A DNA stretch of 64,000 bases from Clostridia bacterium (GTDB lineage Bacteria > Bacillota > Clostridia > JAAYHZ01), in contig JBMNIH010000009.1 in the NCBI GenBank assembly GCA_050950825.1, positions 201,330-265,329 on the forward strand, written 5' to 3'. The notes under the pieces were generated by a model that was not told the DNA's origin, did not search any database, and worked only from the letters and a program-made list of their open reading frames with translations. Positions 1,068-5,103 of the stretch are shown here, one piece after another. How positions within the stretch are numbered: the first letter of the stretch is position 1; every line of letters begins with the position of its first letter. A program made the position numbers and the translations under genes.

Positions 1068-1733
1068 ATGCACCAAGGACACAGAGAACGAGTCAGAGAA
1101 CGTTTTTTAAAAGAAGGGTTGGATTCTTTTCAACCCCATGAAGTTTTGGAATTTTTATTGTTTTATTGCATTCCCCGTAGGGATACCAATGAAATTGCTC
1201 ATCGATTGATAAATGAATTCGGTTGCCTATCCAACGTATTGGAAGCTCCCGTAGAAAAACTGGCGGAAGTAAAGGGAATATCAAAAAATACGGCGGTTCT
1301 TTTATCGATGCTGCCGCATCTTTCACGTTATTATCTAAAAGATCGATGGGGACAAAGACCGGTTTTAAACAGCTCCCGAAAAGCCGGACAGTATGCGGCG
1401 GCGCTTTTAACCGGCAAAAGCTACGAGGAGTTTCTCGTGATATGTTTGGATTCCCAAAACAAGGTCATTCAAGTGGAAAATATACATAAAGGTACGGTTA
1501 ATGAGGCGGTGGTTTATCCTCGTCTGGTTTTGGAAACGGCATTGAAGTACAAGGCCAACAGCGTCATATTCGCTCATAATCATCCCGGCGGCAGCTTAAA
1601 ACCGTCCTCCGCCGATATCGAATTGACGGCAAAACTGAAGCATTTGCTCAACGGGATCTCCATTCGTGTAAACGACCACATTATTGCAGCCGGTACCGAA
1701 TTTTTCAGCTTTGCGGAAAACGGAATGATTTAA
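1068..1733 (+). CDS. radC: RadC (JAB domain) protein
   Basis: MHQGHRERVRERF start, HhH (VKGISKNTA), AHNHPGG...PSSAD...DHII JAB motif. Start moved to ATG 1068. Confidence 0.92.
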   Translation: MHQGHRERVRERFLKEGLDSFQPHEVLEFLLFYCIPRRDTNEIAHRLINEFGCLSNVLEAPVEKLAEVKGISKNTAVLLSMLPHLSRYYLKDRWGQRPVLNSSRKAGQYAAALLTGKSYEEFLVICLDSQNKVIQVENIHKGTVNEAVVYPRLVLETALKYKANSVIFAHNHPGGSLKPSSADIELTAKLKHLLNGISIRVNDHIIAAGTEFFSFAENGMI

Positions 1734-1766
1734 CCTGAATGTAACCTGAAAGGAACGTGGCTTCTG

Positions 1767-1794
1767 TTGAGTTCTTTTTTTTCTATGCTATAAT
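1767..1794 (+). promoter_or_regulatory. Sigma-A promoter just left of the IS110 insertion
   Basis: TTGAGT (1767-1772), 16 nt spacer, TATAAT (1789-1794) with extended TG at 1786-1787. Confidence 0.55.
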
Positions 1795-1957
1795 CAAAGC
1801 ATAGTCCAAACGGACGAATGGCCTAGTTGCTACTTTAAGGAGCATTCCTGTAGTGAAATAAAATGAACTTTGAAAAAGAAGATGCCGTACTGTAGAATTT
1901 GAAATGTGAGTTGCACAACATGTAACCACAAATCAAAATCAACAGGAGGCATCTACA

Positions 1958-3241
1958 ATGAAGTATACCCAAAATGAAAGAATAATGCAAATAACAGAAA
2001 AAACATTGATTGTTGGAATTGATGTTGGAAGCGAAACACATTACGCCCGAGCATTCAATTTCAGAGGATTGGAATACGGAAAGCTATTGAAATTCAATAA
2101 TGACGCGGAAGGGTTTTCAAGGTTTGAAGATTGGGTCAGGAAACTAGTCAATAACAATGGATTCAAGGATGTGACGATAGGTATGGAGCCCACCGGGCAC
2201 TATTGGTTCAACCTTGGAGAATATATCGAAAGACAAAGCGGTATGAGGATCGCGTTGGTTAATCCTCACCATGTAAAGAAAAGCAAGGAATTGGATGACA
2301 ATAACCCGAGTAAAACCGACCGAAAAGATCCGAAAACCATCGCCATGCTGATTAAAGACGGCAGATATATAGAACCCTATCTACCGGAAGGGGTATACAA
2401 GGAATTGCGAACGGCTATGGACAGCCGTTGGCGAATTATGAAGGAGCTTTCCGCAATCAAGAATAGGATTAGCCGATGGCTTTGCATATACTTTCCCGAA
2501 TTGACGAAGGTGTTTAAGGATTGGGAAGGGAAAGCGGCGATCCTCGTATTGAAAGAGTACGCGACACCGACGAAGATAAAAGAGAAGGGTATTGACGGAA
2601 TCATAGCCGTTTGGAAGGAACACAAGATACGAGCAGTCGGAAGAAACAGGGCAAAGATGCTGTTGGAGGCAGCCGTCTCGTCCGTAGGAACGACGGAAGG
2701 GCTAATTTCCGCCGAGTATGAGTTGGAAATGCTGCTTGAAGATTATGAAAGCAAAAAACGCCAATATGATAAAACAATGGAGTTAGTCGAAAGATTGACG
2801 AAAGAAATACCGGGGTTTGAGAAATTGCTTGAAATCAAGGGAATAGGACTTGTTACGGCGGCAGGATTCATAGCGGAAATAGGTGACATAAAGCGTTTTT
2901 CGCATCCGAAACAGATACAAAAGTTGGCAGGACTAAGTCTGAAAGAGAACAGCTCCGGGAAACATAAAGGCAAGACCACCATATGCAAGCGAGGGAGAAA
3001 ACGACTGCGATATTATCTGACATTTGGGATGATGCCGTTGTTATCCAAGAATGAGGAATTTAGAGCTCTGCACGAGTATTACACAAGCCGGAAGGAAAAT
3101 CCGCTGAAGAAGATGCAATCTTTGGTTGCATTGAGTAACAAACTGATTCGGATTTTTTATGCGATACTGACGAAAAACGTAGCGTACGATCCGCAAAAGA
3201 TGATGAGCGATATAAGAAGACCTGAAACCAAAGCTGCATAA
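1958..3241 (+). CDS. IS110-family DEDD transposase/recombinase
   Basis: VGIDVG, GMEPTGHYW, KTDRKD, IKGIG..TAA, SSGK, KRGRKRLR motifs. RBS AGGAGG. Internal promoter TTGAAA-17-TAGAAT at 1870-1898. Confidence 0.95.
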   Translation: MKYTQNERIMQITEKTLIVGIDVGSETHYARAFNFRGLEYGKLLKFNNDAEGFSRFEDWVRKLVNNNGFKDVTIGMEPTGHYWFNLGEYIERQSGMRIALVNPHHVKKSKELDDNNPSKTDRKDPKTIAMLIKDGRYIEPYLPEGVYKELRTAMDSRWRIMKELSAIKNRISRWLCIYFPELTKVFKDWEGKAAILVLKEYATPTKIKEKGIDGIIAVWKEHKIRAVGRNRAKMLLEAAVSSVGTTEGLISAEYELEMLLEDYESKKRQYDKTMELVERLTKEIPGFEKLLEIKGIGLVTAAGFIAEIGDIKRFSHPKQIQKLAGLSLKENSSGKHKGKTTICKRGRKRLRYYLTFGMMPLLSKNEEFRALHEYYTSRKENPLKKMQSLVALSNKLIRIFYAILTKNVAYDPQKMMSDIRRPETKAA

Positions 3242-3426
3242 CTTACACCGCTTATGGAAGGATACATTGCTCTCGTAAGACGGTCAAGGGCAAGACTGCG
3301 TTCGGCTTGCGCCGACCCTTGACAGTCTTCCTCGAGCAATGACGGAAGTAACTAAGCGGTGCAAGGGGACAGAGTAAAACTCAAGTTTTCACTATTCATT
3401 CATTATAGATTGAACATTGACAAGAA

Positions 3427-3590
3427 GAGCCGGATAGTCGGGATGAATTTTCACCATAAGGGCAATGACCCCGTGAAGGAGCTTGACTGACATCCACCTC
3501 CATGGGCAGGCAGAACGAAGGAATTAAGGGCTATGACCCCGTTAGACATGGGAGGGTTGCCACCGGAGAATGTGTGGATACTAATGGCCG
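3427..3590 (+). ncRNA. Candidate bridge/seek RNA in the IS110 right end
   Basis: Two near-identical 18-nt modules (3457-3474 TAAGGGCAATGACCCCGT; 3525-3542 TAAGGGCTATGACCCCGT), each inside a closing stem (AGTCGGG/CTTGACT; CCTCCATG/CATGGGAGG). Boundaries approximate. Confidence 0.65.
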
Positions 3591-3801
3591 TAAAACAGCA
3601 AAACGACGCAGGTTTAATTAGTATGCACTATGGAATCCATAATTATGCAACAATGTATTGTCTGTCCATGTGGCTCATCTTGAAAAATGAGAAAATCTAA
3701 GAATGAGTGAGATATTCAAAGAAAATCAAAGTATTATTAGGGAGGTGAAGAGGGTTCTTTTACGCATGTTTCATTTGCGTTTCGTTTGAGCCCTCGGATT
3801 T

Positions 3802-5103
3802 ATGAAAATTGGAATAGCTGAAGGGAATATTAGAACGCCAATCGGGATGCAAATGACCGGATATGCCGGGAGAGTATTCGGAGCCATGGATATCCATGAT
3901 CAATTAAAGATGAGCGCCTTGTACATCGAATCGGAAGGTGTCGAATCCATGATTATCGTTTGTCAAGTGTTAGGCTTCGACCCTGATTTTTCTCGTGTTA
4001 CCGAAGCAAAGATCTGTCAAGCCATAAATATACCGGAGACCAATCTGATCTTAGGTGCCATACATACCCACGGCGGTCCGGCATCGGGAACCTTGTACGG
4101 ATGCGGTTGTGCGGATCCGGTATGGTTGGAGCAAACGCAGCAGGACTTGATTGATCTTGCGAAAAAAGCGGTGGCAAACTCCTTTGACGGCTACTTTGAA
4201 TATGCGTCCGGCACATGTGAAATTGCATTGAATCGCGTTGCCATGAGCAAATATCCGAATTACATGGATATGATCGACAAGGAAACGGCCGTTGTGAAGT
4301 TTTATGAAACCGCTACCGGACAATTGAAAGCCGTTTTCTTAAACTACGGATGCCATCCGGTTGTTTTAAACCACAAAAACCATTTATACACCGCCGATTA
4401 TGTATATTACGCCATTAAAAAACTGCAGGAAGCATACGGAGAAGACGTAGCCGTTATATTTTCCACCGGATGCTGCGGAGATTTAAATCCCCGTTATCGC
4501 TTTACCTTTGAAATGGCAGAGAAAACGGGTAACCTGTTAGCCGATTCGGTTGTCTCCGCAAAAAAGATATTTACAAACCGCCAAGCCCAAATCAAATGCC
4601 ATGCCAAGCAATTGGTCATACCCTTGGTGATTGACTACACTTACGATGATTTGGCGGAATTTAAGAAAAAAGCGCTTGCCGAGGTCGAAAGACTTACCGA
4701 GCAAAACTACAACGAAAACTTCATTATGATTCAAGTGGAAGCCGTTAAAGCATTATGGGCGGAATTATGTATGAAAGGTTTTGAATCCGGAGATTTGAAA
4801 ACAACGATTTATCCCATGATCAAGGTTCTGCAGATCGGAGATTTGAGCTTTATAGCGCTGCCTTTTGAAGTCTTTCATGAATTGGGGTTGAAAATAAAGG
4901 GGTTGTTTAATCGAGCCGGCCGTTCCATTGTCATGGGATATTCCAACGGTGTATACGGTTATTTGCCATACGGTGAGCTCTATGAAAAAGCAAGCTACGA
5001 AGCGAAAACCGCATTCCGTTATTACGGTTATCCCGGTCCCGTATGCAAAGAAGCCGGAGATATTATTTACAAGTATTTAGAGGAAATAGTGGATACCAAC
5101 TAA
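3802..5103 (+). CDS. Neutral/alkaline ceramidase N-terminal-domain-like metallohydrolase
   Basis: MTGYAGR..DIHDQL, AIHTHGGP, NYGCHPVV, TADY, GCCGDLNP, LPFEVF, GYSNG..GYLP motifs. Confidence 0.75.
   Translation: MKIGIAEGNIRTPIGMQMTGYAGRVFGAMDIHDQLKMSALYIESEGVESMIIVCQVLGFDPDFSRVTEAKICQAINIPETNLILGAIHTHGGPASGTLYGCGCADPVWLEQTQQDLIDLAKKAVANSFDGYFEYASGTCEIALNRVAMSKYPNYMDMIDKETAVVKFYETATGQLKAVFLNYGCHPVVLNHKNHLYTADYVYYAIKKLQEAYGEDVAVIFSTGCCGDLNPRYRFTFEMAEKTGNLLADSVVSAKKIFTNRQAQIKCHAKQLVIPLVIDYTYDDLAEFKKKALAEVERLTEQNYNENFIMIQVEAVKALWAELCMKGFESGDLKTTIYPMIKVLQIGDLSFIALPFEVFHELGLKIKGLFNRAGRSIVMGYSNGVYGYLPYGELYEKASYEAKTAFRYYGYPGPVCKEAGDIIYKYLEEIVDTN

Follow-up and report, generated by a model that had tools for sequence, protein, structure and literature searches.

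A probable two-loop bridge RNA gene at the right end of a Shine-Dalgarno-homing IS110 element

How does an insertion sequence (IS) of the IS110 family in a Clostridia genome find its target, and does the non-coding region at its right end encode the guide? The element in question lies in a 64,000-nt stretch of contig JBMNIH010000009.1 (assembly GCA_050950825.1, positions 201,330 to 265,329 of the forward strand), hereafter the window, whose numbering is used throughout. An earlier note, made from the sequence alone, had flagged positions 3427-3590 as a candidate bridge or seek RNA, with two near-identical 18-nt modules containing small GGG/CCC stems and an octamer, TTCACCAT at 3450-3457, complementary to a reconstructed insertion site. 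The modules, their stems and the octamer are exactly at the stated positions. Its second loop could not be matched to the predicted circle junction, and an unusual guide layout had been suggested. Our results indicate that this stretch is very probably a true gene for a two-loop bridge RNA, situated in the right end of an IS110 element that homes to Shine-Dalgarno (SD) motifs. We hold with high confidence that the IS110 element at 1843-3744 encodes a guide RNA of ~165 nt, in which loop 1 would read the target and loop 2 the donor.

The ends of the element were set by three copies within the same genome together with about 60 homologues, which give AAGGAG|C-ATTCCT...GGGAG|G. The IS accordingly spans 1843-3744 (+ strand, 1902 bp), its boundary being ambiguous by a 2-nt AG at both junctions; the left junction reads AAGGAG|CATTCC and the right one GGGAG|GTGAAG at 3744/3745. 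The window copy is copy A of the three that the host genome holds in all. Copy B (contig C10; L002:1296-3145, - strand) aligns to window 1828-3473 and 3525-3746 and is 98-99% identical to copy A in both pieces, and copy C (contig C11 of the same genome; L003:1501-2000, - strand) aligns to 3250-3749 only, with 100% identity. When copies A and B are placed side by side, their common sequence on the left begins at ...GAG|CATTCCTGTAG, from ~1840 onward; on the right, the sequence common to A, B and C runs to ...TTAGGGAG|G.

The homologues agree with these boundaries. At least 586 related loci were found in one scan of species-representative genomes, and the 80 best were examined for their ends. 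In these 80, every left end is C(A)TTCCTGT, immediately preceded by ...AG; right ends read ...(A/G)G(G/A)AG, and the next base is G. AG stands before the left end in 64 of 64 distinct left flanks, and the element itself ends in ..AG. The right ends were located by a pattern that required AG, and the right-side AG is thus not independent; the pattern made no use of the guide. Collapsed element copies, assembled as short contigs of ~1.9 kb, begin with (AA)GGAG-CTTCC and finish with ...GGGAGG, and metatranscriptome contigs that run through the window element branch into other flanks at 1832-1838 and 3744-3747. As for site specificity of the IS110 type, element and site share only a short core, and the window termini are not inverted repeats.

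On the + strand, the left target flank is AAGGAG (1837-1842), comprising the left target and the shared AG core at 1841-1842, as placed by the junction of copies A and B and by the start of the left end in homologues. The left end, which is the right donor, is C plus ATTCCT (1843-1849). The right end, GGGAG (3740-3744), comprises the left donor and the core and re-forms GGGAGG with G3745, and the right target flank is GTGAAG (3745-3750), as judged from sequence and flank comparison. The reconstructed pre-insertion site is ...CTTTAAGGAG|GTGAAGAG..., an SD-like motif. The earlier note had placed the right end roughly here, and had put the left end at a GG at 1820-1821 (next to CCTAG), which is ~21 bp too far left in the light of the same-genome copies and homologues that give 1843. 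The empty site derived from it, CGAAT-GG-TGAAGA, is consequently not borne out, and the site is AAGGAG|GTGAAG.

With the ends corrected, loop 1 contains two guides to the target. The right target guide UUCACC (3450-3455, + strand), a variable patch of the alignment, pairs with the top-strand G of the core plus GTGAA (3744-3749). The left target guide consists of AAGGAG (3476-3481) and C3482 on the + strand; its hexamer is identical to the left flank at 1837-1842, so it pairs with the bottom strand. Because C3482 matches the first base of the IS, the left target guide reads across the left junction. The two bases after this guide equal the first two bases of the element in 56 of 64 rows; in the window, only the C does so. 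Six of the eight nucleotides that had been proposed as the target complement, TTCACC, stand, while the extra AT was an artefact of the wrong left flank. A 6-nt target match alone would not be significant; the support comes from covariation across the family.

Covariation between loop-1 bases and flanking targets, proposed beforehand as a check, proved positive on both sides. In a first set of 50 right and 42 left flanks, the left guide was far above permutations and the right guide was weak. Copies from eleven further genomes were then added, giving 64 distinct left and 71 distinct right flanks. For the left guide, flank positions -7 to -3 match in 259 of 320 cells, compared with 210.4 +/- 5.7 after permutation (0 of 20,000 permutations as high), and each of these positions is individually significant (p < 0.01). 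For the right guide, 75 of 142 cells match at flank positions 2-3 over the 71 sites, against 53.2 +/- 5.3 permuted (again 0 of 20,000 as high), and flank position 1 gives p = 0.011; positions 4-7 are not significant over the same sites. If a one-base bulge is allowed after GG, several sites (for example L012, L015, L055 and L064) would fit the right guide better. Like its counterpart in IS621, which is described as 4 nt long (PMC11208158), the right target guide is short and tolerant.

Individual copies illustrate the same relationship. Rare variants of the left guide match their own flanks at 7-8 of 8 positions in L011, L019 (TAATGAAG), L065 (AAGAAAG), L009 (ATTGGAG) and L154 (TTTTGGAG). In L011, TAGGAAAG occurs in guide and flank alike, the right guide has ..AC for the otherwise constant ..CC, and the flank has changed from G to T, giving a match of 8/8. 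The complete genome G001 carries nine copies, seven identical and two others, with guides GTTAGGAG and G+GAAAATA; the sites read (T)AGGAG|GAA.. in six of nine cases and GT.. or GC.. at the other three. In the genome of the window, the right-flank fit over 8 nt is 8/8 for copy C and 7/8 for copy A. The proposal that loop 1 selects the target is thus upheld, by corrected flanks that match and by guides that covary with flanks across homologues.

Next, we considered whether loop 2 reads the donor. The right donor guide AGGAAU (3519-3524, + strand) is the reverse complement of ATTCCT (1844-1849) in the left end and pairs with it. In the left donor guide, GGGAG plus G3555 (3550-3555, + strand), the first five bases (3550-3554) equal the last 5 nt of the IS and pair with the bottom strand. 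The predicted circle junction of the window element, ...GGGAG|CATTCCT..., is fitted by both guides. Loop 2 had seemed not to fit the donor because the left end was wrong, and the different guide layout suggested on that ground falls away. An error of 20 bp in an IS end can make a correct RNA seem anomalous.

Across homologues, the complement of the right donor guide equals the left end exactly in 59 of 63 rows, and the other four match at 5/6 positions with one G.T wobble. The guide and left end occur in three end types, AGGAAU with ATTCCT, AGGAAG with CTTCCT, and AAGAAG or GAGAAG with CTTCTT. Similarly, 85 of 87 rows have a left donor guide identical to the final five bases of the element (GGGAG in 71, AGGAG in 11, GGAAG in two and AGAAG in one), and two rows are mismatched. 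In 74 of 83 rows, the base that follows this guide is the one found at flank position +1. Since G3555 matches the first flank base, the left donor guide reads across the right junction, and the placement of these junction-reading bases might reflect the order of strand exchange.

Predicted junction promoters in a clade dominated by Lachnospiraceae independently support the ends of those elements and a circular form. There, the right end carries TTGACA or TTGACT 16 nt from its tip and the left end carries TATAAT 7 nt in (L055, L060, L063, L070, L076 and others), and joining right end to left end creates TTGACA/TTGACT/TTGATT-17-TATAAT (10-12 of 12 consensus positions) in ten of ten elements scanned.

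The covariation of loop 2 bears on the alternative that survives best, in which only loop 1 guides, as a single-loop 'seekRNA', while loop 2 is a structural duplicate, the protein recognises the ends and the donor matches are inherited. The two modules look like a duplication, and, because the rows are phylogenetically related, there are only about three independent co-changes for each donor guide, so that the donor covariation rests on few independent changes. Siddiquee et al. (PMC11187229), in their description of seekRNAs, report short RNAs of 82-96 nt on which target matches alone are marked. However, both loop-2 guides change together with their respective ends in several lineages, the near-complete agreement of guides with ends being as given above, and loop 2 repeats the anatomy of loop 1, namely stem, guide, hairpin, guide and stem. 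We regard a purely structural loop 2 as improbable, and prefer two guiding loops.

The structure of the RNA was assessed from its conservation. When the 3' non-coding region of the window was compared with homologues by BLAST, the block 3422-3593 was the only non-coding stretch common to all clades; it aligned in 69 of the 78 loci having at least 150 nt downstream, and a more sensitive pass gave more copies. Pairing was tested on a non-redundant alignment of 38 sequences, with a skeleton from RNAalifold, and on the 12 nearest relatives in the register of the window. In the 38 sequences, 90.3% of cells are paired, against 27-51% with the partners slid by 1-3 columns, and 18 of 30 pairs have changed on both sides, which none of 500 shuffles reaches. 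In the 12 nearest relatives, 94.0% are paired and 14 of 29 pairs have changed on both sides (0/500 shuffles). Compensatory changes occur in the hairpins and in the loop-closing stems of both loops. Several positions have G.U as their most frequent pair, in favour of the + strand. These counts agree with the two-loop structured RNA that had been proposed for the right-end non-coding region.

From the conserved block and the structure counts, the predicted bridge/seek RNA covers about 165-170 nt at 3427-3596 on the + strand, its ends being approximate. A closing helix (3429-31/3586-88) leads into loop 1, whose closing stem (3437-41/3487-91) is 100% paired in the 12 near relatives, with three of five pairs changed on both sides, and 95.2% paired in the 38 sequences. 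Loop 1 is capped by the hairpin of module 1 (3457-3474; GGG 3460-62 with CCC 3469-71). A long helix (3492-3501 and 3504-05 with 3563-68 and 3574-79) encloses loop 2; the corresponding alignment helix, 71-77/159-164, is 95.8% paired and has three pairs changed on both sides. The stem closing loop 2 (3509-12/3558-61) has all four pairs changed on both sides, and module 2 (3525-3542; GGG 3528-30 with CCC 3537-39) forms the capping hairpin. The modules, identical at 17 of 18 positions, are more than a chance resemblance, given the conserved block and the compensatory changes. The unpaired sides of both loops are the parts that vary between homologues. In the Lachnospiraceae-dominated clade (for example L063:3335-3515; alignment columns 111-130), the loop-2 hairpin bears a further small hairpin in its apical loop, which the window clade lacks; the pairing of this insertion is partly captured by the alignment (59.8% paired).

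Taken together, the guides and the fold suggest the following mechanism. The 3' non-coding region would encode the bridge RNA (about 3427-3596) on the transposase strand, as two hairpin-capped internal loops, each closed by a stem. On the target, UUCACC, on the 5' side of loop 1, would pair with top-strand bases immediately to the right of the insertion point (G+GTGAA), and AAGGAG, on the 3' side of the loop, with bottom-strand bases to the left of that point. On the donor, which would be the joined ends of an excised circle, loop 2 would hold the left end (ATTCCT) by its top strand through AGGAAU, and the right end by its bottom strand through GGGAG. The AG common to target and donor would be the place of recombination. 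The target programmed in the family would be the SD motif AAGGAG|G, a few bases before a start codon and in the orientation of the gene. That the RNA is made and bound by the transposase, that strands are exchanged at AG and that a circular intermediate forms are inferred by analogy from the literature on IS621 and IS1111. The RNA may be processed from the transposase transcript.

Several observations weigh against this reading, in addition to the small number of independent donor co-changes. Pairing with the right flank is loose, about half of the sites matching at positions 2-3, and copy B, whose left flank fits at 7/8, has a poor right fit of 4/8. No exact empty allele of the window site was found among 40 other genomes searched. 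Good matches (76-77% identity) came from two of them only, a congeneric genome and a genome from the same family, and four more genomes matched weakly (E 1e-4 to 1e-10). In the congeneric genome G004, radC and the ceramidase-like gene are adjacent without the IS, with AAGGAGG 9 nt before ATG; the exact junction is not checkable there because the intergenic sequence has diverged. In the window clade, the circle junction shows little of a promoter, the window and L010 reaching only 8/12 and six other near relatives having none; ISPpu9 is a published IS110 member described as lacking a junction promoter (PMC12288879).

Further such points concern the RNA itself. The single-sequence fold of 3427-3596 is no more stable than shuffles (z = 0.67, 148 of 200 shuffles folding as well; minus strand, z = 1.52), which is unsurprising because the RNA has large open loops, yet gives no support. 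A scan of 1700-3900 with Rfam 15 gave no matching family at E <= 1, the sole match being a chance-level StyR-143 (21.9 bits against a gathering score of 176); since Rfam holds curated families only, this miss does not speak against an RNA. A scan for an RNA promoter and terminator found neither, and the RNA ends were not located. Metatranscriptome data comprise 18 RNA-library runs that contain the stretch, and contigs from four of four runs examined cover the element; such cover shows neither transcription nor RNA ends, and its gaps and depth are uninterpretable. No circle-junction joint was present among the contigs listed for these four runs.

The absence of a separate promoter or terminator from the scan, the unremarkable fold energy and contigs that cannot show transcription are what one would cite for another explanation, that the conserved block works as DNA or as an ordinary 3' element of the mRNA, such as a transposase-binding end, a terminator or a stabiliser, rather than as a guide RNA. 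However, the compensatory changes keep RNA-type pairs, many of which are G.U and would be A.C on the other strand. Moreover, it is the unpaired loop segments, not the stems, that vary with the flanks, and the block is set 150-320 nt into the element, away from its tip. This explanation appears slightly less probable still than a purely structural loop 2, and a guide RNA is preferred. Least probable of all is that CCACCTCC (3494-3501), which resembles the anti-SD end of 16S rRNA and in the window copy is complementary over 7 nt to GGAGGTG across the reconstructed site, is a real target reader or an SD-binding regulator, since it sits in the 5' strand (3492-3505, + strand) of the covarying helix that encloses loop 2, the extra C completing CCTCC is found in the window only among the 38 sequences, and the Lachnospiraceae-dominated clade has an unrelated CCCTGGTT at this position yet the same AAGGAG|G target. 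We thus rejected CCACCTCC as a guide in favour of a helix strand.

The target flanks themselves point to translation signals. The flank consensus of the family is (A/T)AAGGAG|G. All 64 left flanks have A at -2 and G at -1; further out, G stands at -3 (59/64) and -4 (60/64) and A at -5 (52/64), and on the right side the base at +1 is G (62/71). GGAG|G occurs at 45 of the 57 sites having both flanks. The first ATG lies 5-10 nt past the junction at 39 of 73 sites, and ATG, GTG or TTG lies there at 54 of 73, both counts being without a background rate. The element is always oriented with the downstream gene, and its right end GGGAG, together with the flanking G, rebuilds an SD sequence. For the window copy, the nearest long open reading frame (ORF), the ceramidase-like ORF at 3802-5103, begins 57 nt downstream. 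A host promoter-like site at 1767-1794 (TTGAGT-16-TATAAT with TG) lies left of the insertion and is now separated from this ORF.

It is possible, and we put it forward tentatively, that this widespread clade of Bacillota IS110 elements consists of dedicated SD homers. Such elements would keep an AAGGAG guide and rebuild the SD by their right end. Their RNA would mirror the strand layout of IS621, having the right guide 5', the left guide 3' and the junction-reading bases behind the left guides. Right-end modules on their own, of which copy C is an example, may persist as non-autonomous or trans-acting sources of guides. If so, insertions would spare translation signals and yet put the gene behind the element. 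In mycobacteria, IS110 members of the IS900/IS901/IS902 type insert in one orientation between the ribosome-binding site (RBS) and the start codon, at AAGGNG-N(4-6)-CATG. They belong to a different phylum, and the likeness is one of description alone. Our literature search found no paper tying IS110 elements or bridge RNAs to SD targeting; the supplements and figures of papers, which lay outside its scope, may list members of the clade.

The two other copies in the host genome differ from copy A in their RNA region. Copy C is a solo right-end module without a transposase gene. It occupies the perfect target AAGGAG|GTGAAAA, and 5 nt further on comes the ATG of an ORF that encodes a lipoprotein-like signal peptide. 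At its left boundary (window 3250), copy C was compared with both donor guides without a match. RNA-only modules have a published precedent in ISPpu9 (PMC12288879). Copy B is without the 68 nt between the two 18-nt modules (window about 3474-3541), and the deletion looks like the outcome of recombination between direct repeats. What remains is a fusion of the loop-1 5' half with the loop-2 3' half that has neither the left target guide nor the right donor guide, so the RNA of copy B should be non-functional.

Other irregular copies were seen among homologues. At L028:4160-4200, about 395-413 nt past the stop codon, GATTATTGAGGGAG, the final 14 nt of the right end, is present in two copies at a distance of 18 nt, a tandem right-end remnant at that insertion. 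In L087:3953-4128, the RNA block gives way to unrelated sequence after the left donor guide, and in L023 and L041 the DNA downstream of the transposase gene is unrelated to the RNA block; these three copies are damaged. Among the metatranscriptome runs, X1 and X6 contain contigs of 345-366 nt that match only 3476-3529 and then continue in unlike sequence. Their depths, 61.5 and 280.4, are the highest figures among these contigs, though contig depths are not rankable. They look like RNA of a related element in those communities.

The transposase gene (1958-3241, + strand) encodes 427 aa with a DEDD/RuvC-like and a Tnp domain, as identified by Pfam, NCBIfam and alignment with IS621. The domains match PF01548 (DEDD_Tnp_IS110, E 4.7e-25) and PF02371 (Transposase_20, E 2.7e-24), and with NF033542, 'IS110 family RNA-guided transposase', the protein scores 215.5 bits against a cut-off of 140. 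A search of solved structures gave alignments with IS621 (8wt6, E 2.8e-10) and ISCro4, and E77, D121, D124 and S333-G334 align on E60, D102, D105 and S241-G242 of IS621. The first catalytic aspartate is probably D22 in GIDVG, assigned by motif only and outside the printed IS621 alignment. The two domains, the NF033542 match and the predicted catalytic DEDD residues and SG serine all point to membership of the IS110 family, as had been proposed.

The non-coding flanks of the gene measure 503 nt downstream and 115 nt upstream. A promoter-like site for the gene (1870-1898, + strand; TTGAAA-17-TAGAAT, 10/12) is predicted from its consensus match. As a promoter for the RNA, TTGAAC/TTGACA near 3410-3422 was considered and rejected, having no usable -10. 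After the stop codon, the fold predicts a long imperfect hairpin (3246-3362, + strand; ~115 nt), which is not part of the conserved RNA by its BLAST extent: only the nearest relatives have it, L009 and L010 aligning from 3246 and all others from 3362 or beyond. This hairpin accounts for much of the strong fold of the non-coding region (z = -5.2). The contig of L008 ends inside it, and the left boundary of copy C lies at its base.

The locus merits further study for its SD homing with SD regeneration, its strand-mirrored layout, and the presence of solo and deleted copies in one genome. For a clade whose IS110 transposases are long (427 aa) and whose RNA lies 3', it provides a fully annotated natural bridge RNA, with four guides, core and ends, and the at least 586 relatives may serve as new orthologues for programmable recombination. 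The targeting of ribosome-binding sites and the re-formation of the SD bear on how such elements limit or exploit effects on host genes, and the guide order offers a natural comparison with IS621.

In its general design, the system resembles the IS621/IS110 group as described in PMC11208160 and PMC11208158. Likenesses are a recombinase with DEDD and Tnp domains that aligns to 8wt6, a single RNA of ~170 nt with the target loop before the donor loop, and loops built as stem, guide, stem-loop and guide. The strand assignment described for IS621 (PMC11208158), bottom strand for left guides and top strand for right guides, is found here too. Target and donor have a 2-nt core in common, the right target guide is short, and extra guide-adjacent bases read the recombined junction, like the 'handshake' guides of IS621. 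However, the RNA is encoded here 3' of the transposase gene, whereas that of IS621 lies in the left end, and each loop has the right guide 5' and the left guide 3', the reverse of the IS621 order. The junction-reading bases follow the left guides here and belong to the right guides in IS621. The core is AG instead of CT, the transposase has 427 aa instead of the 326-341 aa described, and sequence similarity is confined to the C-terminal domain (E 2.8e-10).

In the location of its RNA, the element resembles the IS1111 group, which likewise has its long non-coding region 3' of tnp. Siddiquee et al. (PMC11187229) also mention a subgroup of the IS110 family whose non-coding region lies downstream, and this clade may be that subgroup. 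Just as they describe for IS1111-type seekRNAs, the top-strand match lies 5' of the bottom-strand match, and the target matches overlap at the insertion point. Differences are the length of the transposase, 427 aa compared with the 330-350 aa given for IS1111 transposases (PMC11187229), and the termini: IS1111 elements have subterminal inverted repeats of 7-17 bp, whereas the best ungapped match of the window termini is 10/25, none being clear. By eye, the two ends agree at about 10/13 of their first 13 nt in the Lachnospiraceae-dominated clade. Furthermore, the donor guides lie here in a simple internal loop, unlike the multi-loop donor sites described for many IS1111 members (Durrant et al., PMC11208160).

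Another Clostridia IS110 element is CazIS110-1 of Caloranaerobacter azorensis, with which the comparison is by description only (bioRxiv 10.1101/2025.10.25.684509). Its full-length bridge RNA is described as ~170 nt, accompanied by a target-loop species of ~77 nt and a donor-loop species of 87 nt. The LT-RD and LD-RT junctions are given as the pairing partners of its loops, and the left guides of the window element likewise extend across junctions. The RNA of the window element fits the known two-loop design, and both a reversed guide order and a 3' location have already been described for part of the IS110 family.

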